In this document: in pieces, positions 14,341 to 29,800 of the stretch
Layout of the letters: each line of letters opens with the position of its first letter
Numbering within the stretch: the first letter of the stretch is position 1
Assembly: GCA_034435815.1 (NCBI GenBank)
Contig: DAOTWK010000239.1
Coordinates: 1-38,534 of the forward strand
Source of the DNA: Anaerolineae bacterium
GTDB lineage: Bacteria; Chloroflexota; Anaerolineae; B4-G1; DUEL01
Reading direction: 5' to 3'
Length of the DNA: 38,534 bases
Position numbers and translations under genes: made by a program
Notes under the pieces: model-generated
What the model saw: only the letters and a program-made list of their open reading frames with translations
The model's database searches: none
What the model was told of the DNA's origin: nothing

Positions 14341-14368
14341 CCGTATTCCGTACTACGTATTCCGTGCC
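14341..14368. repeat. Heptamer repeat (CCGTATT family) spanning the last codons of the endonuclease gene and the spacer before the MTase-1 start
   Basis: ccgtatt ccgtact acgtatt ccgtgcc. Contains CGTATTCCGTG at 14356-14366. Confidence 0.8.
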
Positions 14369-15076
14369 AGAAGGTTACGCCACATTGTCTCTTCGTCGCT
14401 GCCGTAGAGGGCCTGAAACTCCCGTTCCAGTTCGTCCAGTTTGGCTTCCAGAATCTCCGACAGGGTCTGGCCTTCGGGGTCGCGAAAAGTCTCTCCGACT
14501 TCGGCGGCGATGGCGTAAATCTCATCCACGCAGTCCGGGTCTCCGGAGATGAACTCCCAGAACTCCCGCCCAACCAGCCAGTCCACGCCGCCCTCTTCCG
14601 CGACGTACTTGCGGACGATGCTGGAGACCTGGTCCCGATTCCCGTAACACATCCCAAAAAAGGCCACCGAGCCCCGATTCCGCCGCTGGGCAGAGCGCAG
14701 TAAATCGGCGATCCGCTTCGCCTGTTCTTTGGGAATGGGATTGGGGCCGCTCTTGACCTGGATGTAGTAGTGCCGCCCCTCGTGGGTTTTCAGGATGTCT
14801 GCCCCCTCCACCCCCGTCCCCTCAGAAAACACTTTGGCCGCCTTCTGGAGAGCCAGGCCGAAAGAGGTTACGGTTCCTCGCTCCAGCCGCTGGCTCACCA
14901 GCCACCGAACGATGGAACGGGCGTCCTTCAGCCCTAACTCTTTGGAGAGCAGGCGAACCAGGGAACGGGTTGACATCCAGGTCTTCTGTTCGCAGGCGGC
15001 GGATAGTCCGGACCCGCTCCCGCAGGAAGTCCTCAAAAATCTGCCGAATCTGAAGGCGCTTGTCTTCCGGTAGCAT
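14353..15076 (-). pseudogene. Putative type II restriction endonuclease (PD-(D/E)xK-like core), split by a 1-nt insertion
   Basis: The N-terminal ORF (ATG at 15076, RBS GGAG) reads MLPEDKRLQIRQIFEDFLRE...EDLDVNPF and then runs out of frame. Removing one C from the sense CCC (plus-strand GGG 14961-14963) joins it to LVRLLSKELGLKDARSIVRW...GADILKTHEGRHYYIQVKSGPN... An internal ATG at 14976 could still yield an N-truncated product. Confidence 0.6.
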
Positions 15077-15101
15077 CCCGAACTTCTCCAGTTATCGGGT
15101 A

Positions 15102-16199
15102 TCACGGGATCACTTCCCACCGCCCTACCAGTTTCTCCATAACCTGGGGGAGGGTGGTGTACTCCATCTCCTCCATCGGCAGCCGGTGGGGCTCAAAGGG
15201 GCCGTGGCGGCGGAAGTGGTCGGCGATGACGTTGCATAGATGGCGCGCCTCGTCAAAGCCCGGGTCGTCAAACATATCCCGGGGCCCCACCAGCCGTCCC
15301 CCAGCAATCTGGAACCCCAGACAAACGACGCGCGGCGGGCCGTCAAAGCGGCTGGGCGTGGCATGGTAGAGGGGGACCGGCATCAGCGGGCCGTAGTGGG
15401 AGCCCCGCATCCAGCCCTCCACGATGTGGGGCATAGTGAACGGCTCCAGCACCTCGCCGACGGCCGGGAAATCCCCCTGGCTACGGACGATACAGACGGG
15501 GTCGTCCTTGCCCACGTACCGCCCGGCGATGAGGGAGAGGCGTTGGGTAGAGGAGACGGCCGCAATCTCGCCCTTTTTGGTATAAACTGCCTTGACCATA
15601 TAGCGGCCCGGCGCGCCGATGAAGACCAGCAGGTCGTAAAGTTCCTCCGGCGTATCAAAGAAGACTCGCTTGCTCTCCTTCACATCGTGGACCTCAAAGC
15701 GGAAGCCATCATGCATTGCCGGGGAGATGACCAGACCGGCAGTATTGAAGGGGTCGGCGAACATGCGATAGAGGGGGAGGTTCCAGGCCCCAGCGGAGGT
15801 CTTATCAGCCATAAAGATGAGCACGGGCTCAGAAGGCCGCTCGGTGAACTCCATCTCCGCCACGCCGGGGCCCATCCCCTTGACGTTGCCAGAGAAAGCA
15901 TCCGCCAGCAGGTCTTGCCCGGCGCCGTAGAGTTTCAGCCGTCTGGCGACTTCGGTGCAAGCCTCAAGGGTCTCCCAGGCTAGGCGATGAATGTCGGGGT
16001 TATCCACCCCCTTGCGGTGGGTCATAATGAGTTGCAAGTCATCCCCACAGGCCGTCACATAGAAATCCACGATGAGGTCCTCTTTGACTGCCACCTCCAG
16101 CCGGTCTTCCGCTTCTTCTATGAGTTCATCGTGGACGCTGGAGTGGCCCACGAATCCACCGACATCAGCCTTGATGACGCTGAGCGTGATGTGGTCCAT
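15102..16199 (-). CDS. fbp: Fructose-1,6-bisphosphate aldolase/phosphatase (class V FBPase)
   Basis: 365 aa. LSVIKADVGGFVGH, LYGAGQDLLADAFSGNVKGMGPGVAEMEF and MADKTSAGAWNLPLY are family hallmarks. Confidence 0.92.
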   Translation of the reverse strand: MDHITLSVIKADVGGFVGHSSVHDELIEEAEDRLEVAVKEDLIVDFYVTACGDDLQLIMTHRKGVDNPDIHRLAWETLEACTEVARRLKLYGAGQDLLADAFSGNVKGMGPGVAEMEFTERPSEPVLIFMADKTSAGAWNLPLYRMFADPFNTAGLVISPAMHDGFRFEVHDVKESKRVFFDTPEELYDLLVFIGAPGRYMVKAVYTKKGEIAAVSSTQRLSLIAGRYVGKDDPVCIVRSQGDFPAVGEVLEPFTMPHIVEGWMRGSHYGPLMPVPLYHATPSRFDGPPRVVCLGFQIAGGRLVGPRDMFDDPGFDEARHLCNVIADHFRRHGPFEPHRLPMEEMEYTTLPQVMEKLVGRWEVIP

Positions 16200-17947: not shown

Positions 17948-18246
17948 AAGATGGCCTCCAGCGAGCCGAGAATCGCCTTGCGGCGAATGTAGTTCCGGCT
18001 GCGCTCCACCGCTTCCCATTCTACCAGGTCTACTTCCCGTCCAAAAATCCGAGAGAGTTCCTCTGGATACGGCTCACAGTCAGAAGGCCGTAGTGCGAAT
18101 CCGGGGCGAATTGGACCAAGACGTCTACGTCGCTATCGGGGCGGAAGTCCGAACGCAAAACGGAGCCAAACAATGCCAGGCGGGTAATCTTGTATTCCTG
18201 GCAAAGCCGGACCAGTTCCTAATAATTCACTCGTATGCGTTCCATT
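17944..18246 (-). pseudogene. mntA: MntA-type nucleotidyltransferase antitoxin gene with three lesions
   Basis: My translation of the minus strand gives [24 protein letters not shown] / [39 protein letters not shown] / [39 protein letters not shown]. Lesions: an in-frame TAG at 18220-18222, a +1 insertion at 18179-18181 and a -1 deletion near 18058-18064. The stop overlaps the hepT start (ATGA). Confidence 0.7.
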
Positions 18247-18256
18247 TCGTTCCGCT

Positions 18257-19432
18257 TCACGGCACAACGCCGCCGCAGGAGGCATAGTTGGCGTTGTGTT
18301 CCGCCTCCGTCCGGGCGAAGAGATGGCTCCCGTCGTTCTTGTGGCAGTCGGCGATGAAATAGAAGTAGTCGGTTTGGGCCGGGAAGGCCGAGGCCTGGAT
18401 GGACGCCAGGCCTGGACTGCAGATGGGGCCCGGGGGCAGGCCGGGGTAGCGGTAGGTGTTGTATGGGTGGTCTATTTCGGCAAGGCTGTTCACGCCCAGT
18501 TCGTCAAAGTAGAGCCGACGCCACCACTTCCCGGTCTTTGCGTCGTAGCCCAGGGCGTACTGGACGGTAGGGTCGGCGTTGAGGAGCCAGCCGTTCCGCA
18601 ACCGGTTCAGGAAGACGCCTGCGATAATGGGCCGCTCCTCGGGGATGACGGCCTCCCGCTCCACCAGCGAGGCCAGGGTGACCAGTTGGTGGACGGTCAG
18701 GCCCTGGTTGGCCGCTCCCATGCGCATCTCTTCGGTCACCCGCGCGTCAAAGGTCGCCAGCATACGGGCCACCACGTCATAGGCCGTCACCTCCTCCGGC
18801 AGACGGTAGGTCTCCGGGAAGAGATACCCTTCCAGGCTGGTCCCCGGCGGCAGGTCGGCCAGGAAGGGGTAGTCCTTCAGGTCGGTCTCCCGCCAGCCGG
18901 TGGTCACCAGGGCGATGAAATCCGCCTCGGCGACGCCCGTCTGCGCGGCGACGGCGGCGGCGACCTCTTCCAGCCGGAGTCCCTCACGGATAGTCACCAC
19001 CCGCTCTGGGCGAAGGCCGGTCTGCAGCGCCTCGGCAATTTCGGGAATGGTCATCGTCTGGCGCAGGGTGTAGGTGCCGGCCTCCAGCCCGGCGTCCATA
19101 CCCTTGTATTGCAAGTAGCGCCGGAAGAGTTCGGCGTTGGAGATGAGGCCGGCCTCCTGGAGGCGCTGGGCGACCGACGCCGCCGTCTCCCCGGGCTGGA
19201 CGACGAAGGTGACCGGGGTGTCGTCGGTGCCGGCGGGGCGCTGGAGTTCTTCGGCGTGCATCTGGATGTAGGTCTCCAGGGCGATCTCTTTGGGGGAGCC
19301 TGCCGCGCTAAGGTTGCAGATGGAGATACCCAGTCCGCCGGTCCGGCGGAATGCCCACACACCCCCGCCGACGATAATGGCAACTGAGGCCAGCGCCAGC
19401 AGAAAGGCCACGACACGGGCTGTTTGTTTCAT
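18257..19432 (-). CDS. mltG: Endolytic murein transglycosylase MltG (YceG-like)
   Basis: ATG at 19432 is preceded by GAGGTG. There is an N-terminal TM segment. YLFPETY, LASLVEREA and GVFLNRL motifs are present. Confidence 0.88.
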   Translation of the reverse strand: MKQTARVVAFLLALASVAIIVGGGVWAFRRTGGLGISICNLSAAGSPKEIALETYIQMHAEELQRPAGTDDTPVTFVVQPGETAASVAQRLQEAGLISNAELFRRYLQYKGMDAGLEAGTYTLRQTMTIPEIAEALQTGLRPERVVTIREGLRLEEVAAAVAAQTGVAEADFIALVTTGWRETDLKDYPFLADLPPGTSLEGYLFPETYRLPEEVTAYDVVARMLATFDARVTEEMRMGAANQGLTVHQLVTLASLVEREAVIPEERPIIAGVFLNRLRNGWLLNADPTVQYALGYDAKTGKWWRRLYFDELGVNSLAEIDHPYNTYRYPGLPPGPICSPGLASIQASAFPAQTDYFYFIADCHKNDGSHLFARTEAEHNANYASCGGVVP

Positions 19433-19514
19433 GTTCACCTCTTGCGAAACCACGAAGACGCGAATGGACAATTCGCAATGAACGATTCCTCGTGTCTTCG
19501 TGTCTTTGTAGTTT
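19433..19514. other. Structured ruvX-mltG spacer: octamer repeat (CGTGTCTT x2, 19491-19506) and a long nested hairpin
   Basis: cacgaagacgcg (19451-19462) pairs with cgtgtcttcgtg (19491-19502) with one mismatch. An inner stem gaatgg-acaattcgc region has GCGAAT/ATTCGC complementarity. Confidence 0.65.
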
Positions 19515-19931
19515 TTACTCTTTCTGGGCTTCCAAGAATCCCTGTAGCAGGACGGCAGCGGCGACGGCGTCTACATCGCCGCGCCGGCGGCGTTTTCCGG
19601 GCCGCCGGACAGTCTCCAGAATCTCCTGGGCAGCGACCGTGGTGTAGCGCTCATCCCACAACTCCACCGGCACCGGCAACGCCTCCGCCAGGGCCTGCGC
19701 GTACGCCTCCACCCAGCGGGCCTGGGGGCCCACCTCGCCGCGCAGGGTCAGCGGCCGCCCGATAATCACCTGCTCCGCGCCGTGCTCAGCGACCAGTCGG
19801 GCAATGGCGGCGAAGTCCTCGGCTCGGGACTTCCGCTCCACCACCCCCACCGGTCGGGCCACCGTCCCGGTAGGGTCGCTGACCGCCACGCCGATCCGTC
19901 GTTCTCCCAGGTCCAGTGCCAGCACGCGCAT
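19515..19931 (-). CDS. ruvX: Holliday-junction-resolvase-like / pre-16S processing nuclease RuvX (YqgF)
   Basis: MRVLALDLGERRIGVAVSD...VIIGRPL...DERYTTV. I chose the ATG at 19931; GTG at 19946 is also possible. Confidence 0.88.
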   Translation of the reverse strand: MRVLALDLGERRIGVAVSDPTGTVARPVGVVERKSRAEDFAAIARLVAEHGAEQVIIGRPLTLRGEVGPQARWVEAYAQALAEALPVPVELWDERYTTVAAQEILETVRRPGKRRRRGDVDAVAAAVLLQGFLEAQKE

Positions 19932-19942
19932 CGTGAAGGGAA

Positions 19943-20361
19943 TCACAATTTCCCCTGGTTTGCTAAACCAATAAACTCTTCCAGTGTGACCACTTTAACC
20001 GCTTCGGCTTTCTGAATATACTCTCGCCACTTATCGCCGATGAAATAATTGCGCTTGCTCCAGCCCCTTCCCCCTAATACCACATAGGCCCGACTGATTC
20101 CCCTGTCCGGATCGCCTCAGCCAAACACATAATTTCGTAAGGGACTTTCTGCTCCGCAGTGCCAGACACCTGTTGCCATTTTAAAGAAATGATGATTTTC
20201 TCACCCAGAGCATTCGTCGCAACAATGTCAGCCTTGTGAGCGCCACCACCCAGCCGCTGGCCTACGACAACCTGCTCTTCATAACTGTAATGACCATACT
20301 TCAGAGCGGGCAGCACCATTTGCTCCAGGACGGCTCCGGTGGTGGTCTTTCTGGGATTCAT
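19943..20361 (-). pseudogene. Small PD-(D/E)xK-type restriction endonuclease of R-M module 2, frameshifted
   Basis: The 95-aa ORF (…HKADIVATNALGEKIIISLKWQQVSGTAEQK…) stops at 20074. The next frame continues without stops as …AYVVLGGRGWSKRNYFIGDKWREYIQKAEAVKVVTLEEFIGLANQGKL to the TGA at 19943-19945. The shift lies near the C4/G4 run at 20100-20103. The start overlaps the MTase stop (ATGA). Confidence 0.6.
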
Positions 20362-21947
20362 ACGACTTCCTCTCGGCGAAAGATCAGCAGATAATGATGA
20401 ACAATTTTAAGAAACTCTCGGGAATCTGAAGGCATAGAAGAAGAGTTATCCGGGACTACAATCACAATCTCCTTTAGGCGAAGATGGTGGTAGCGGCTCA
20501 AATGCTCCAGTAGCAGAAGTCCTGCTGGCAAAAGATGTTCACCTTCTCGTATGTCTTCCGTTCTCACAGCCAGGAAACCACCAGGCAAGAGAACCCGCTG
20601 ACAATCTTCAGCGATCCGGTCAACGGTTTCCAGAAAACCGTAAAGATACGAGCGGGGAGGAATCTCCCCAGGAGACCCATAAACATAAAGGAGTGAAAAC
20701 GGACCATCCAACGAGGATTCCTCACCTTCCAATTTCGTCGCTTGATGAGGGAAAAGGCAGATTTCTGCCACTTGCGTTCCGCCAGCCCCAAAGCGGTTTG
20801 CCAGATTGCGAACGATTTCCAATTCCCACCGATGGGCCGGAAGAATCCACACGGAAGTAGTCTCCAAGTTCTTATCCCTCGCCTCTCCTTCCTGGATTAT
20901 CTCCCGGTGGAGTTTCCAAGAAAAAGCGCATGGAAGGAAAGTCCCCTCCTCTTGTTGTTTTTCCTCAACCGGTTTTTCAAAAATCGGCAGATACTCATGA
21001 GCCAGTAGCAGAAAGTTATACTGAAGACTACGCGCATACCAAAAACCGGTCGTCTTACAATTGTGCTGCCGCTTGATCACCAATTCTCTTAAGCGGAACC
21101 CTGCGTTGAGGAATAATCGGATCGTCCAGAATCCAATGGGCAAGACATGACGGGATTGTCGGGTATCTCCAATGAGAAGCGCGCATTTTCCCCCCGGTTT
21201 CAGGACACGCCAACTTTCTTGAGCCACCTTTCCCATTTCTTCAAGAAACCGGGGGATAGGAAGAGACGAAAGGTCGCCCTCTACCTGCGCGCTATAGTGT
21301 ACAATTCCGGCATAGGGGGGATGAGCACAGATTAAGTCTACGCTTTCCGCCTCAACAAAGGAGAGTGTCCGAGCATCTCCAACGCGGGTTTCCGGTTCGT
21401 AGACCGGCCCGACCTCTACCAATGGCGGTACCTGAAAGGACAGGTTCTCTCGTGTGAGTTGAATAGCCTGGGGGTTGATGTCTATAGCGATACAGCGTCG
21501 TCCTAAAAGCTTGGCCTCCACCGCCGTCGTGCCACCACCGACGAAGTAATCCAGCACCACGTCCCCCGGACGGGAGTACTTCAGAATCACATTACGGGGA
21601 ATATATGGAGACCAGTTCCCGCGATACCGTCCATCATGAGTCGCCCAATCACCCCGTTTCTTAAAACTCCAGACGGTGGTTGTTTCCTCCCGGAAATCGC
21701 TGGGTGTGCAGGCCCGAATCCGCTTTTGACGCGCCAGCGAAGAGATATTCACGCCATAAGCTTCCGTGATGATCTGTTCTAATTGACGAAACGAGATGCC
21801 AAACGTAACCCCGATTTCTGCATCCGGCATTCCTCCCGCCTTGGCCTCCAGCACGGCAGAGCGGAAAGCATCTTCTCCGTGCTCCTGGCGGAGGTGATTT
21901 CCCAGAGGCTGAGAAATACGTTCTCCACAAATCAGGCAGGTCTTCAT
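20358..21947 (-). CDS. DNA methyltransferase with N-terminal Zn-finger/HTH region and a degenerate second methyltransferase-like half
   Basis: 529 aa. The N-terminus has CLICGE...HLRQEH plus an HTH-like GMPDAEIGVTFGISFRQLEQI. Motif I is VLDYFVGGGTT...AIDINP and motif IV is LICAHPPY, then RVLKPGG...HEYLPIFEK. Residues about 360-529 repeat this pattern in degenerate form. GC is about 40-50%. Confidence 0.7.
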   Translation of the reverse strand: MKTCLICGERISQPLGNHLRQEHGEDAFRSAVLEAKAGGMPDAEIGVTFGISFRQLEQIITEAYGVNISSLARQKRIRACTPSDFREETTTVWSFKKRGDWATHDGRYRGNWSPYIPRNVILKYSRPGDVVLDYFVGGGTTAVEAKLLGRRCIAIDINPQAIQLTRENLSFQVPPLVEVGPVYEPETRVGDARTLSFVEAESVDLICAHPPYAGIVHYSAQVEGDLSSLPIPRFLEEMGKVAQESWRVLKPGGKCALLIGDTRQSRHVLPIGFWTIRLFLNAGFRLRELVIKRQHNCKTTGFWYARSLQYNFLLLAHEYLPIFEKPVEEKQQEEGTFLPCAFSWKLHREIIQEGEARDKNLETTSVWILPAHRWELEIVRNLANRFGAGGTQVAEICLFPHQATKLEGEESSLDGPFSLLYVYGSPGEIPPRSYLYGFLETVDRIAEDCQRVLLPGGFLAVRTEDIREGEHLLPAGLLLLEHLSRYHHLRLKEIVIVVPDNSSSMPSDSREFLKIVHHYLLIFRREEVV

Positions 21948-22008
21948 TTTCAGCGGTACCCAAGTTGCTCTGAACCCTGGTCTGGCTATTTGATCGTTTT
22001 CACCGAAT

Positions 22009-23547
22009 CTATCTTCCAGGGTTAACGTCTATCCGGATTCGCATCGGCAGCAGGGGCATCCGCATCAGCCACTGGGGCCAGACCTGTATCTGGGGTGGCT
22101 GAGCCAGCGGCCACTGAGCGGCAAGGAGGTCGGCGGCTTGAGCGACGCTCTTCCCGCGCACCGTCTGCCGGACGACCTCCGGGTCCACTTCCGCCGCTGC
22201 GTAGCCCACCGCCGAGACGGTGAACTGAATGACACCGTTCTCGGGGCCCGCCGTCGGCTCCCGAATCTGGAAGTCGGTATCTATCAGCACATGTTCAGGC
22301 GGCAGACGGCGCACCAGGGCGGCGTAGCCCACTGCCTCAGCGTTATCCCGGTCCACCGCCATACCGGTGACCAGCAATTTCATATAGACTTGCAGTTTAT
22401 CCGCCTGTTCGTAGAGGAACCGGTCGTACGAGACTTCGCTGGCCTGAATCTCCAGCGATTGCCGGAAGAGCACTTCGGTCGGTTCCAGGTACGTCTGCAG
22501 GCCCTGGTAGGCCTCCTCCAGCAACCGGGCCGTCAACTCCTTCCGGGCCCGGTCCATATCTTCCTGGGAGACGGCGCGGACTTCCTTGAGGCCGCCGCCT
22601 CGCGTCGGCTCGGGGTTGATGACCCGCAGGGCCAGGGCACTAACGCCTTCCACCTGGTTGATGAGTCCGGCGTCCACGTTGCCGGCCGGACCCTCCTCCA
22701 GGGCCTCTATAGGGGCCGGGGCCTGGCCGAAGGGAGACACCGTCACATCGCGGGTGGTAGCGAAGCGGACCGGGAAGGCGCCAGCGGACGTGCGGACAAT
22801 GGTGCGGGCGGGGACGGTAATCTCCTGGCCCAGCATGTTGGTGAAGAGGACAGTTCCGGTAGCCCGGCCCGACTCATAGGCGGCGGTGCCGGTGGTCTCC
22901 ACTTCCAGACTGCCCGCGAAGTAATCGCCCACCCGACGGGCGGGAATCTGTCCGCTGGCGGCGTCCACCGCCTGCGTTTCCAGCCCGGCCCAGACAGGGA
23001 CGGCCGCCCGGACGGTCTCCACGGTGGGGGCCAGGGTGACGGTAGCCTGGGGGACGACCGCATAGGCGAAGGCGATGATGACCAGCATGGTGGCGACGAA
23101 AACGGTCAGCCGGGCACCCAGGCGGACGTTCTGGGCCCAGGGCGGGAGCGGGCGGGCCGGCGGCGGTCGGAGCGGGACTTCCTCCTCCCACCAGGCGCGG
23201 GGCGGTGGCTTCAGGGGCTCCCGCTCCGGGCGGGGCCAGATTTGGGCCGCCTCCGCCTCGGCGATGGACGCGAAGGCCGGCAGCCCGATCCAGCGGACAT
23301 AGGCCCGCCGGTCCGGGTCCTCGGAGACGACGGCGACTTCGGCGCCCAGCCGCTCTGCCTCTCGGCGCACCCGTTCGCCGTCCAGCGGATTGGAGAAGAG
23401 ACGGGTCTCCCAGGGAAGGACAATGATGACCCGGCCGTCGGTGCCGGCACTCCGCTGTGCTCCGTGCCTGACTACGAGCGCCTGGCGTAAGCGGTGGCGC
23501 AGGACGGTCAGGTCATCGTCGGGGTGAAGGGAGATGATGTGCGGCAT
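22009..23547 (-). CDS. Hypothetical single-pass membrane protein (cytoplasmic N-domain, Pro-rich linker, TM, large extracytoplasmic domain)
   Basis: 512-aa ORF at native high GC. The TM segment is LTVFVATMLVIIAFAYAVV. I did not recognise a catalytic motif. Confidence 0.5.
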   Translation of the reverse strand: MPHIISLHPDDDLTVLRHRLRQALVVRHGAQRSAGTDGRVIIVLPWETRLFSNPLDGERVRREAERLGAEVAVVSEDPDRRAYVRWIGLPAFASIAEAEAAQIWPRPEREPLKPPPRAWWEEEVPLRPPPARPLPPWAQNVRLGARLTVFVATMLVIIAFAYAVVPQATVTLAPTVETVRAAVPVWAGLETQAVDAASGQIPARRVGDYFAGSLEVETTGTAAYESGRATGTVLFTNMLGQEITVPARTIVRTSAGAFPVRFATTRDVTVSPFGQAPAPIEALEEGPAGNVDAGLINQVEGVSALALRVINPEPTRGGGLKEVRAVSQEDMDRARKELTARLLEEAYQGLQTYLEPTEVLFRQSLEIQASEVSYDRFLYEQADKLQVYMKLLVTGMAVDRDNAEAVGYAALVRRLPPEHVLIDTDFQIREPTAGPENGVIQFTVSAVGYAAAEVDPEVVRQTVRGKSVAQAADLLAAQWPLAQPPQIQVWPQWLMRMPLLPMRIRIDVNPGR

Positions 23548-23621
23548 GCTCTAAAAACCACGAAATCGCACACTGCTCTTCTACTATTTCTCCGCGCTCT
23601 CCCCACTCTCTACGGTGGGAA

Positions 23622-26384
<2,763 letters not shown>

Positions 26385-26415
26385 AGGCGCTCCTCGTCAA
26401 CACTTTGTGACGCGT

Positions 26416-26444
26416 ATTGTAGTCTAAAGGGGGGAAACTGTCAA
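26416..26444 (-). promoter_or_regulatory. Near-consensus sigma70 promoter for alaS (TTGACA-N17-TACAAT on the minus strand)
   Basis: tgtcaa is at 26439-26444 and attgta at 26416-26421 on the plus strand. This implies a leader of about 30 nt with GAGGAG. Confidence 0.55.
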
Positions 26445-26555
26445 CTTTCTGCGCTAAGGGCTGCGGTTCGGACATCAGTTGGGACATCTGCGTTCTTCCC
26501 TCTCCCCTGGCCGCGGGGCCACGGCCCGAGGGGCCTCGTCCCGTGGGGCTTCGTA

Positions 26556-26589
26556 TTTTGAGCCCGGACGTTTATGTCCGGGCCCAAAA
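26556..26589. other. Palindromic hairpin TTTTG-AGCCCGGAC-gtttat-GTCCGGGCC-CAAAA in the alaS/A2M divergent spacer
   Basis: Read directly. Same T-tract-5'/A-tract-3' architecture as 16311-16340. Confidence 0.75.
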
Positions 26590-26747
26590 CCGTTTCCGAC
26601 GAAATTGGGACACACTCTTCCCCTTTCTGCGGAACTACGGAGCCCGCTTCATCGTCTAAAGAAAATAGAGACGCGCGGAGTTTATCCTCTCCTCAACCCG
26701 AAGGGATATGGGTGGAGTGAGGAACACCGCACTGTAGATTTTACCAG

Positions 26748-26776
26748 TAGACAACCCACCCTATTCGTGGTATACT
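26748..26776 (+). promoter_or_regulatory. Candidate promoter for the A2M gene (TAGACA-N17-TATACT with TGn extended -10)
   Basis: TAGACA is at 26748-26753, and gTGgTATACT ends at 26776. Confidence 0.5.
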
Positions 26777-26836
26777 GGGGTTGCCGCACTGTTCCGTATG
26801 CCGCACTCTGTATTGCGTCCTGCGAAAGGAGCCGCC

Positions 26837-29800
26837 ATGAGCCGTAACCGCTTCTGGACCCTGCCGATCTTGCTGACGCTGCTGGTCAGCATGGTGCTTT
26901 CCTGCGCTCCTCCCTTCCTGCGCCGCGCCACGCCCACCCCGACCACCCCGCCCCTTCCTGCCACCAACCCTCTGCTGATGGTGCGCTCCCCCGCGCGGGG
27001 CGAGGAGACGCCGCTGGACCGGCCCCTCCGTCTGGTCTTTGACCAGCCCATGGACCGGGCATCTGTGGAGGCCGCGTTCCGCATTGAGCCGAAGGTGGAG
27101 GGCACCTTCTCCTGGACCGACCCGGTCACCCTGGTCTTCACTCCCAAGAAAGAGTGGCAACGGGCTACCCGCTACCGGGTCAAACTGGACACCACTGCCA
27201 AATCCGCCGAAGGCCTCCCCCTGAAGGAGGAGGTGGAGTTCACCTTCGCCACCGTCGGCTACCTGGAGGTGGCCCAGGTCCTGCCCGAACCCGGCGCGCG
27301 CGACATCCCGCCGGATACCCCCGTCACCATTATGTTCAACCGGCCCGTCGTCCCCCTGCAACTGGTCAGCGCGCCGGTGGTGGATATGCCCGTCCCCGTC
27401 GTCTTTGACCCGCCCGTGGAGGGGGCCGGCGAGTGGGTCAACACGTCCATCTACGTTTTCCGGCCCAAAACGGGCTTCGTCCCCGGCAAGACTTACCAGG
27501 CCACCGTCCCCGCGGGCCTCTCCGACACCACCGGCGGCGTCTTGGAAGAGGACTTCACCTGGCAGTTCACCATTGAGGCCCCCTATGTTCTCTTTGTAGA
27601 GCCCGCCACCGGCTCCACCCTCGTCCCCCTCACCCAGACCGTCAAAATCACCTTCAGCCAGCCAATGGACCGGGCCTCTACCCAGGCCGCCTTCTCCCTG
27701 AAACCCCTGCGGAGCGAATCTCGCGTCCCCGGCCGCTTCATCTGGAGCGAGAACGACACGGTGATGTCCTTCATCCCAGAGGGACGGCTGGAACTGGATA
27801 CGGAGTATCTCATCACCCTGGAAGAGACGGCCCTCTCCGCCCAGGGCGCGGCTCCGTTGAAGGCTCCGTACAAGTGGTCCTTCCGCACCGTCCCCTACCC
27901 CCGCATTGTCAGCACCTACCCCTCCGACGGGACGAAGGACGCCTACCCGGGCACCGAGTTCCACATCAAATTCTCCGCGCCCATGGACATCTCTACCCTG
28001 ATGCCCAACATCACCATCATCCCCGAACCGACCCGCGTCTACACCTACTGGGACCCGTGGGAGAACGCCTTCGTCCTCAACTGGAGCCCGCCCGCGTCCA
28101 CATCCTGGGAGGTCCGCCTGGGCGGCCGCATGGCCGACCCCTACGGCAACACCATCGGCCGGGACACTGTGGTCCGCTTCTCCACCCGCCCGCTGGACCC
28201 CGCCGTCTACCTTCAGGTGCCGGGCAACATCGGCCTCTACAATGCCTACACGTCCACCTACGTCTATGCTTCCTACCTCAACGTCACCCAGATAGATGTC
28301 TCCCTCTCCCGCCTGACCTGGGAGCAGTTCCAGCGTCTGACCACCGGCGACTGGTGGCAGGTCTGGGAGAGTTTCCGCCCGGCGGAGGAGCAGATTATCC
28401 GCCAGTGGACGATTCCAGTGGAGGCGCCGCTGAACGAGGCTCGCTATAAGCGGATTAACCTGGCTGAGGACGGTGGCTCCTTGCCACCCGGCCTCTACTT
28501 CCTGGAAATCTCCGCCCCGGAGACCCGCCGACAGGGTTGGAGTCCCACCCGTCATCTTTTCGTCGTCTCCCGCATCCACATGACCCTCAAACAGGCCTCG
28601 CGGGAGGCACTGGTCTGGGCTACCGACCTGGCCACCGGCAAGCCCGTCCCCAACCTGCCGGTTACCGTCTACGGGAAGTCCGGCACCATCACCGCGCGCG
28701 GCACCACCGACGCCGACGGCGTCTTCCGCACCGGCTTCCCTCCCCTGGAGGACCTCTGGACAACTTTTCTGGCCTACTCCGGCGCGCCCGGAGAGCCCAA
28801 TTTCTCCGTCGTCAGTAGCGACTGGTACAGCGGCATCGGCCCCTGGGACTTCGGCCTCTCCTCGGAGTTCTACATCCGCCCCTACCGCATCCACATCTAC
28901 ACGGACCGGCCCATCTATCGGCCGGGACAGCCCGTCTACTTCCGCGGCGTCGTCCGGGCCGAGGACGACGCCCGCTATACCCTGCCCCCGGTGGGCGAGA
29001 CCGTCTCCGTCATCGTCCGCAACGACCAGGGCGAGGAAATCTACCAAGAAACCTTGCCTCTCTCCGACCTGGGCACCTTCAACGGACAATTCACTCTGGC
29101 CCCGGAGGCCGGCCTGGGCTACTACTGGATTGAGGTCAATTACAAGAAGCAGACCGACGGCGTCGGCTTCCAGGTGGCCATGTACCGCCGCCCGGAGTTC
29201 CAGGTGACCGTCACTCCGGATAAAGACCAAGTCCTGACGGGCGATAAAATCAACGTCTCCGTCCAGGCCACTTACTTCTTCGGCGGCCCCGTTGCCGGCG
29301 CGCAGGTCCGCTGGACCCTGATGACCCAGGATTCCTGGTTCCGGCCCGACGTCCCCGGCTGGTGGGATTGGACCGACACCAGCCGGTGGGACTGGTGGAC
29401 CCCCCAGGAGGTGCCCGGCTACGGCCGTGTCATTGCCGACGGTACCGGCACCACCGACAACCAGGGCCGCTTCGTCTTCACCGTCCCCGCCGACATCAGC
29501 GACGCCCTCTTCAGCCAGCGGTTCACCATTGAGGCCACCGTCACCGACGCCACGGACCAATCCGTCTCCAACCGGGCCCAGGTCCTGGTCCATAAGGGCC
29601 TCTTCTACATCGGCCTGCGGGTCCAGCAGTACGTCGGCGTTGAGGGTGAGGAGCAGCCGGTGGACATCCGCACCGTGGACTGGGAGGGCGCTCCCGTCGC
29701 CCGCGTCCCCTTAACCCTCACCCTCACCCGGCGGGAGTGGCTCAACGTCCAGGAGGAGGACGAGTACGGCAATGTCTACTGGACCTGGACCGTCTCCGAC

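Follow-up and report, generated by a model that had tools for sequence, protein, structure and literature searches.

Organization of the locus

We analysed a stretch of 38,534 nt of contig DAOTWK010000239.1 of an Anaerolineae bacterium (hereafter the window), in which a two-gene cassette resembling a Type II restriction-modification (R-M) system is lodged within a cluster of housekeeping genes. The genes of the region are all encoded on the minus strand, in the order alaS, g512 (our label for the conserved 512-aa gene between alaS and the insert), methyltransferase, nuclease, ruvX and mltG. Throughout the text, G000 denotes the source assembly, the other G numbers denote the genomes of relatives, and L numbers denote loci of these relatives.

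The cassette is composed of (i) an intact gene (20358-21947, minus strand) encoding a DNA methyltransferase (MTase) of 529 aa (PF01555, N6_N4_Mtase, E 6e-27) and (ii) a PDDEXK_11 nuclease gene (19943-20361, minus strand; PF20472), whose product comprises approximately 138 aa when intact and which is split here into two frames. A preliminary description of this DNA had recognized an MTase and a small endonuclease gene with an ATGA overlap. The protein family matches bear out both assignments; the presumed intactness of the nuclease gene does not hold, since a frameshift caused by a 1-nt deletion had been overlooked. The distances given there were correct: a spacer of 61 nt (21948-22008, minus strand), which constitutes the left junction of the insert, separates the g512 stop codon from the ATG of the MTase gene, and 11 nt (19932-19942, minus strand), constituting the right junction, separate the nuclease stop codon of the second frame (TGA, 19945-19943) from the ruvX ATG at 19931.

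The left flank of the insert is formed by g512 (22009-23547, minus strand), which carries a weak Baseplate_J-like domain, and the right flank by ruvX (YqgF; 19515-19931, minus strand; PF03652, E 4e-40; TIGR00250). The cluster begins with alaS (23622-26384, minus strand; PF01411, E 2e-200) and continues beyond ruvX with mltG (YceG; 18257-19432, minus strand; PF02618, E 1e-85), the probable start of which is the ATG at 19432. The g512 gene is found in the same place across the whole order, with 36-92% identity; its product matches the Pfam model with E 2e-5 and the phage baseplate-wedge family PHROG 6 with E 6e-15.

The insertion site and its empty counterparts

The ruvX gene was located in 40 relatives and its neighbours were read. 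In over 20 relatives that belong to the family or order and lack the cassette at this site, g512 directly adjoins ruvX-mltG, and an empty g512-ruvX site, with a spacer of approximately 10-240 nt, was found in six species of the same genus (G001, G002, G004, G005, G006 and G012). The cassette is a true insertion into a conserved cluster. The earlier view of a foreign cassette, oriented as its neighbours and placed inside the conserved alaS ... ruvX-mltG cluster, is backed by this synteny and by the base composition; absence from the same site in relatives combined with deviant composition is the signature of a horizontally acquired island.

Orthologous cassettes occupy the same site in five other species (G009, G007, G003, G010 and G011). 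The identity of their MTases to that of G000 is 83% in G009 and G007 (both with an intact nuclease gene), 77% in G003 and 70% in G011; the cassette locus of G010 is split over two contigs. In G001, and probably in G004, a related cassette (68%) is located on the other side of g512, between this gene and alaS.

The 11-nt right junction is conserved in G009, G007 (at the ruvX copy adjoining the nuclease gene) and G003. The left junctions differ in length among the carriers, from 0 to approximately 180 nt, and the 61-nt left spacer of the window is partly alignable with the longer junction of G009, which points to a common origin of the two. Neither a long (>30 bp) or short target duplication nor flanking inverted repeats were found at the cassette junctions. 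The search for a vector in phage and plasmid collections revealed no full-length homologue, with core-only or weak matches being obtained.

Two similar words near the edges of the insert had been proposed to be a degenerate target duplication. Both are real, CCCTGGTTTGCT at 19953-19964 (plus strand; the start had been placed at 19952) and CCCTGGTCTGGC at 21975-21986 (plus strand), and both have another explanation. The first lies within the nuclease coding sequence: its reverse complement encodes ANQG, a part of the C-terminus ...ANQGKL, in which A134, N135 and the terminal L do not vary between phyla. The second is placed in the left spacer and is kept only in G009; the junctions of G007, G003 and G011, three of the five other carriers, lack it. 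No copy of either word was found in the empty sites examined. The pair is imperfect (12-13 nt), falls outside the 20 largest of the 45 direct-repeat families present in the same 2.9 kb and is no better than dozens of chance repeats in this interval.

The empty spacers of the same genus are filled by hairpins resembling repetitive extragenic palindromic (REP) sequences of the CACGAAGACAC family. One such hairpin, CACGAAGACGCGA...TCGTGTCTTCGTG, is also present in the ruvX-mltG spacer of the window (19451-19502, assigned to neither strand). The CACGAAGACAC word occurs in 13 + 16 copies in the genome, compared with approximately 0.6 expected per strand, and the hairpin family based on CACGAAGACAC / GTGTCTTCGTG numbers 29 copies across the assembly, compared with about one expected. 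In G001 and G004 these hairpins are sometimes arranged in tandem within the g512-ruvX spacer. Their role as cassette boundaries or recombination sites was considered and rejected, as none of them flank the cassette at its other sites.

Base composition

The G+C content of the interval 19943-22008 is 51.3%, compared with 0.653 and 0.662 in the two flanks and with a genome mean of 63.4 +/- 2.9% for windows of 2066 bp. The interval is placed 4 standard deviations below this mean, and only 0.18% of the windows are as low. The preliminary description had reported a fall from over 60% to about 40-50%; the drop is confirmed, its size was overstated, as 300-bp windows over 19850-22100 range from 0.48 to 0.56 and none reaches 0.40. 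The deviation is sharper in codon usage: the G+C content at third codon positions (GC3) is 0.52 for the MTase gene and 0.54-0.56 for the nuclease gene, versus 0.82-0.85 for alaS, g512, ruvX and mltG.

Six low-GC islands of this type, that of the cassette included, are present in the assembly. The other five (G+C content of 0.53 or less in 2-kb windows) are located on contigs C231 (2000-6866), C140 (5200-9466), C322 (400-3066), C193 (0-2066) and C479 (0-2466); the island on C231 falls to 0.42.

The GC3 of the MTase gene is 0.52-0.57 in G000, G009, G007 and G003 (hereafter the crown carriers), 0.59-0.61 in G001 and G011, and 0.49-0.63 in a second cassette lineage, compared with about 0.8 in native genes. 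Third-position changes in the MTase gene were polarised with G003 as the outgroup. On the three terminal branches leading to G000, G009 and G007, the excess of AT-to-GC changes looked for as a sign of amelioration was not found, there being 47 GC-to-AT and 29 AT-to-GC changes. It is possible that an accessory allele is less exposed to whatever force, linked to recombination or to codon usage, maintains the high G+C content of native genes.

The methyltransferase

The MTase is composed of (i) a head (residues 1-74) with a conserved C-x2-C...H-x4-H zinc finger and a helix-turn-helix (HTH)-like segment, (ii) an active core (residues 75-325), in which motif I (FVGGGTT) precedes motif IV (AHPPY), and (iii) a second, degenerate MTase-like domain (residues 345-529), which lacks both catalytic motifs. 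The two MTase domains were aligned with each other using hhalign (98.3%, E 1.4e-14), and this similarity identifies the C-terminal domain as a predicted degenerate copy of the core. HTH heads that autoregulate are known for several Type II MTases. Motif I and a motif IV of the (D/N/S)PPY type, both expected of the MTase of a Type II R-M system, are present, the latter with H in place of D/N/S; FVGGGTT and AHPPY are each shared by 90% or more of the family members. The order of the blocks is permuted with respect to the beta-class enzyme 2zie, with motif I (117-175) placed ahead of motif IV (188-267), so that the beta-class order of motif IV ... target recognition domain ... motif I does not apply to this protein. 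Solved structures with similarity to the MTase were limited to the generic methylase core.

DNA amino-methyltransferases do not typically carry HPPY, the MTase gives weak matches to the Trm11, RlmKL and PrmA models, and one homologue has been labelled TRM11-family by NCBI. These features would fit a pair unrelated to R-M, in which RNA or protein is the substrate of the MTase and the small nuclease acts as its toxin-like partner. We regard this as highly improbable. DNA methylase models are by far the best matches, namely PF01555 and the REBASE-derived Type II methylase model of PADLOC (MTase_II, PDLC03376), which is matched end to end by core residues 75-325 (E 2.6e-92). In Fusobacterium vincentii, a homologue of 244 aa, with 55% identity across the entire core, is encoded directly after an endonuclease of the DpnII family (PF04556, E 5e-109). 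Moreover, the downstream partners vary: in place of the 138-aa nuclease, the MTase gene is followed elsewhere by unrelated small open reading frames (ORFs) of approximately 160, 185 or 450 aa, a variety typical of restriction enzymes and of MTases paired with non-homologous endonucleases. The distribution of the cassette, which is patchy, low in G+C content and spread over several sites, also argues against this alternative.

The nuclease and its frameshift

Frame A of the nuclease gene (20074-20361, 95 aa) overlaps the MTase stop codon by ATGA, and frame B spans 19943-20116. Frame A alone matches positions 4-87 of the 145 positions of the PF20472 profile, and the read-through of both frames matches positions 4-143 (E 6e-17). 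DNA alignment with G009, G007 and G001 placed the lesion at 20096-20097 (minus strand), where the coding strand lacks an A between T20097 and C20096 (GGGGAAT^CAGTCGG). This A is present at locus L092, an independent assembly from another sample, which contains a nuclease ORF of 139 aa, an MTase 97% identical to that of G000 and DNA identical at approximately 97%. Intact nuclease orthologues of 138-142 aa are encoded next to the MTase in G009, G007, G001 and L092; the window lacks such an intact neighbour.

The AlphaFold (AF2) model of the nuclease (pLDDT 91) has an alpha/beta core similar to that of restriction endonucleases. Its best neighbours in the PDB are AF1548, the nuclease domain of Can2, EcoO109I and NucS, with modest TM scores of 0.4-0.55. 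Residues E13, D45, S59-x-K61, E70 and E76 are invariant in 40 homologues, and the fold together with the conserved acidic/lysine triad places the protein in the PD-(D/E)XK superfamily. In Cfr10I/NgoMIV-type restriction endonucleases of this superfamily the motif takes the form PD...SxK...E, with the acidic residue displaced. A PDB sequence search with the nuclease yielded no match, PADLOC contains no model for it, and a literature search for PDDEXK_11/PF20472 yielded no paper.

All of the invariant residues listed above precede the frameshift. The truncated product, which would end its family match after residue ~87, is deprived of the invariant AY-VLGG-GW core strand and of the C-terminal helices, and for this reason it most probably would not fold. 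We tend to the opinion that the frameshift is a real and very recent mutation. It is possible, with a smaller share of our confidence, that it is an assembly or consensus error and that an intact, active R-M system occupies the site: the lesion is a single nucleotide with no further damage downstream, the gene is intact in the 97%-identical independent contig, and the source is a fragmented metagenome-assembled genome (MAG) of 489 contigs. However, the deletion is located outside a homopolymer (AATACAG to AATCAG), no frameshift was detected in 8 kb of alaS, g512, ruvX and mltG or in the 1.6-kb MTase gene, and the nuclease gene has decayed in two other lineages (G003 and G011), which makes its loss a recurrent outcome.

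Repeated loss of the endonuclease

In G003, the nuclease gene has suffered two internal deletions, one of which removed the S-x-K motif. In G011 it has been wholly lost, and the 3′ end of the MTase gene overlaps the start of ruvX. The MTase gene is intact in every carrier. As judged from these alignments, the nuclease appears to have been lost independently three times, in G000 (the 1-nt deletion), G003 and G011; decay of the restriction gene with retention of the modification gene is how solitary MTases classically arise from R-M systems.

The MTase is under purifying selection, with dN/dS values of 0.14-0.20 (dN and dS, nonsynonymous and synonymous substitutions per site), similar to those of its housekeeping neighbours. 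These values span a period in which the nuclease was present, and the break in G000 may be very recent or an error.

Age of the cassette and number of gains

Among the crown carriers, the dS of the MTase gene is 0.47-0.86, compared with 0.11-0.60 for the flanking genes; the respective values are 0.60 and 0.24-0.45 for the pair G000-G009, and 0.47 and 0.11-0.22 for G009-G007. As the dS of the MTase equals or exceeds that of the flanks, the cassette is older than the splits between these species. In a tree constructed with 119 database homologues, the MTases of both insertion points, g512-ruvX (site 1) and alaS-g512 (site 2), form one clade with a support of 100 and a long stem, the inner branching of which roughly follows the host trees.

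The preliminary description, in its plain reading, had implied a horizontal acquisition private to this genome. The strongly deviant G+C content and GC3, and the lack of any sign of amelioration, would suit such a recent arrival. We nevertheless consider it extremely unlikely, because orthologues with 70-85% aa identity are present at the same site in five species and the MTase gene has a dS no lower than the flanks; the cassette is neither private nor younger than its surroundings.

Simple descent is challenged by the unlinked rpoB gene. Its tree pairs G000 with G002, in which the site is empty, the monophyly of the crown carriers is rejected (approximately unbiased (AU) test, p 2.6e-5), and at least four changes between the occupied and empty states are required. 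One gain and strictly vertical descent thereafter are therefore insufficient, and losses, re-gains or allele exchange are needed. The cassette may have entered the g512-ruvX spacer more than once, in the lineage of G010/G011 and in the crown carriers, by attraction to the site or by recombination between species. Apart from the rpoB tree, this would agree with the retention of one homologous REP-type spacer in the empty sites, with the location of the G001/G004 cassettes on the other side of g512 and their dS of 0.016 (flanks 0.11-0.24), and with the variable length of the left junctions. Repeated entry seems to us somewhat unlikely, given that (i) the MTase tree within this lineage (lineage A) mirrors host relationships, (ii) the dS of the MTase for G000-G011 is 2.2, which is not below that of the flanks (0.7-1.1), (iii) the four crown carriers share an identical right junction, and (iv) sliding-window identity along alaS-g512 revealed no clear recombination tract linked to the occupied allele, a signal that is weakened because all crown species are approximately 90% identical. 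In addition, the G004 cassette is located on a 3-kb contig that may be mis-binned.

The cassettes of G001 (L013, 5700-7693) and G004 (L007, 695-2254) encode proteins with 99.4% identity. Such near-identity reflects either a recent transfer between species or the mis-binning of the G004 contig.

It is probable that the insert is an old occupied/empty polymorphism, with alleles in part passed on by descent and in part swapped, through the conserved flanks, by homologous recombination.

Expression, target site and proposed working

The only strong sigma-70-like promoter match on the coding strand between 18000 and 27000 is the one located ahead of alaS (TTGACA-17-TACAAT, 26416-26444, minus strand; 11 of 12 positions matched). 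No promoter-like site was found on the coding strand of the left spacer (21948-22008), no terminator-like site was detected outside coding sequence between g512 and ruvX, and an Rfam scan of 18000-27000 gave no match. Read-through from alaS is the simplest model of expression suggested by these predictions: both cassette genes would be read by transcription from the alaS promoter that continues into ruvX-mltG, and it is this continuity that would have allowed the insertion to be tolerated.

We propose that the cassette was inserted co-directionally into the g512-ruvX spacer of an alaS-g512-ruvX-mltG operon in a Thermoflexales-type genus of Chloroflexota, and that it was afterwards inherited vertically, probably with additional exchange as an occupied/empty allele by homologous recombination. 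The MTase would modify a short DNA site, and the 138-aa PD-(D/E)XK nuclease (E13, D45, S59-x-K61, E70/E76) would cut the same site when unmodified. With the MTase gene placed first and the two genes overlapping by ATGA, the MTase would be made before the nuclease, whose translation may be coupled to it. In G000, where the deletion truncates the nuclease, the cassette would now work only as a solitary MTase.

DpnII-type specificity offers a lead to the target, which is possibly GATC: DpnII-type enzymes cut this sequence, and it is such an enzyme that neighbours the core homologue in Fusobacterium vincentii. GATC is under-represented in G000 (observed/expected ratio, O/E, of 0.41), and three other palindromes, TCGA (0.07), AGCT (0.08) and CTAG (0.08), are far more depleted, to an extreme degree. 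CCGCGG is strongly avoided as well (0.28). The MTase query gave 11 separate matches in G000, which indicates many other methylases. Palindrome avoidance was rejected as a guide to the target, since TCGA, AGCT and CTAG are the most depleted and the avoidance is not attributable in a genome with many methylases.

Taken together, we consider it likely that the window contains an old, promoter-less, Type II-like cassette with the MTase gene ahead of the nuclease gene, located in an operon spacer and shared by several species, the nuclease of which is now broken in this genome. Several points weigh against this interpretation. HPPY is an unusual catalytic motif, and neither a solved structure nor, in the library searched, a paper was found for either protein family; R-M activity and specificity are predictions. 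The rpoB tree contradicts simple descent, and all of the empty sites carry a homologous REP-bearing spacer, which independent precise deletions would not recreate. The GC3 has not shifted towards the genome value, which is unexpected for a long-resident neutral insert. Finally, the deletion may be a consensus error in so fragmented an assembly: it is the sole lesion, and the reading frame remains clean beyond it.

Related cassettes and other inserts in the alaS operon

Each of the two products has more than 1,800 matches among database proteins, typically over the full length with 55-60% identity. They originate from Chloroflexota, Acidobacteriota, Kryptoniota and Asgard archaea.

A paralogous MTase lineage (lineage B; 52-58% identity) was found at other sites in G002 (L014, 5993-8084), G013 (L015), G005 (L017), G008 (L018), G006 (L019) and G017 (L016). 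In G002 and G013, it is located between response-regulator/kinase and histidine-kinase genes, which are adjacent in contig C276 of G000. The MTase gene of this lineage is followed by an unrelated ORF of approximately 160 aa without a Pfam match; G017 contains both this ORF and a PDDEXK_11 gene. Lineages A and B never co-occur (A in 8 genomes, B in 5, neither in 1, both in 0), which suggests equal specificity or incompatibility.

In sister species, the alaS-g512 and ruvX-mltG spacers hold small, co-oriented modules of the addiction type (L009, 5393-5930 and 9992-11273; L010, 1136-1500 and 6514-7138; L054, 3391-4164; L058, 3053-4086; L013, 7693-8935). They include HicB/HicA, a PIN (VapC-like) toxin with its antitoxin, a ParE-like toxin, UPF0175, and DUF2283 with a DUF4258-like partner. 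Selfish inserts of two genes seem to have a hotspot in the alaS operon. G007 (L010) contains two copies of ruvX (1493-1885 and 2381-2809), approximately 90% identical, one of which is located directly after the nuclease gene and is followed by a DUF4258-like/DUF2283 pair, with the other placed ahead of mltG. The two ruvX copies may reflect a long duplication created by a recombined-in block. Elsewhere in the window, at 14353-15120, there is a 255-aa ORF of a second R-M module, whose homologues in G007, G006 and G012 are open frames of 232-250 aa, a similar length that gives no obvious sign of a frameshift there.

A broader scenario, which we put forward as speculation and consider unlikely as a whole, is that in this genus the operon spacers act as a standing landing pad, where promoter-less two-gene modules, namely this R-M family on both sides of g512 and HicAB, VapBC-like, ParE-like and DUF2283 pairs in other spacers, are captured, expressed by read-through and exchanged between species. 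The GC3 of about 0.5 would then persist on the time scale of speciation since an allele that is present in some genomes and absent from others is spared the GC-biased conversion or codon selection that holds native genes at 0.8, and the MTase would be on the way to becoming a domesticated, Dam-like GATC methylase.

Comparison with known systems

The entry of an R-M cassette into an operon, followed by loss of the nuclease with retention of the MTase, is ordinary, textbook behaviour of R-M systems. The locus is of modest value as a natural series within one genus, comprising the empty site, the intact cassette and three independent modes of endonuclease loss; a further insertion point lies 1.5 kb away, and lineages A and B of the cassette exclude each other in the genomes compared. 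As a small model it could help to address (i) the origin of solitary MTases, (ii) the failure of long-resident accessory genes to ameliorate in a high-GC genome and (iii) the tolerance of essential operons to selfish inserts. The protein pair, an MTase with a dead twin domain and a 138-aa PDDEXK_11 partner, is widespread and apparently uncharacterised; the nuclease, if confirmed, would be among the smallest restriction enzymes.

The MTase shares the AdoMet-binding and PPY catalytic-loop blocks with the beta-class N4/N6 MTases of PF01555, such as TTHA0409 (2zie), CcrM (6pbd) and M.MboIIA (1g60). It differs from them in the permuted order of these blocks, the presence of HPPY instead of D/S-PPY, the zinc-finger/HTH head and the degenerate second domain. 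The nuclease resembles the Cfr10I/NgoMIV-type enzymes in having D45, S59-x-K61 and the downstream E70/E76, but it is only 138 aa long, its fold matches are modest, and it has no sequence match to a solved structure. In the DpnII/MboI systems, which recognize GATC, a PF04556 endonuclease is combined with a PF01555 methylase such as DpnA, and a homologue of the core adjoins DpnII in Fusobacterium vincentii. The partner in the cassette is, in contrast, the unrelated PDDEXK_11 protein, and GATC specificity is only a lead.

Solitary MTases derived from decayed R-M systems were reportedly described by Seshasayee and colleagues in 2012, and they are also a subject of Fullmer et al. (2019; PMC6471742). 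The carriers may be on a comparable path: their MTase shows purifying selection, measured over a time when the nuclease was present, and the restriction gene is frameshifted in G000 (if the deletion is real), internally deleted in G003 and gone in G011. The present case differs in that the nuclease loss in G000 would be very recent (the 97%-identical strain keeps the gene).

R-M cassettes as mobile units were reportedly the subject of earlier work by Nobusato and Chinen. Type II cassettes behaving in this way (Furuta, Abe and Kobayashi 2010; PMC2853133) are likewise small units of a restriction and a modification gene, without a mobility gene of their own and with deviant G+C content and GC3. 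They are likewise present or absent between syntenic neighbours, with related copies at several sites. Unlike them, the cassette in the alaS operon has no target duplication or flanking inverted repeats, and it is an old insert found across species rather than a strain polymorphism.

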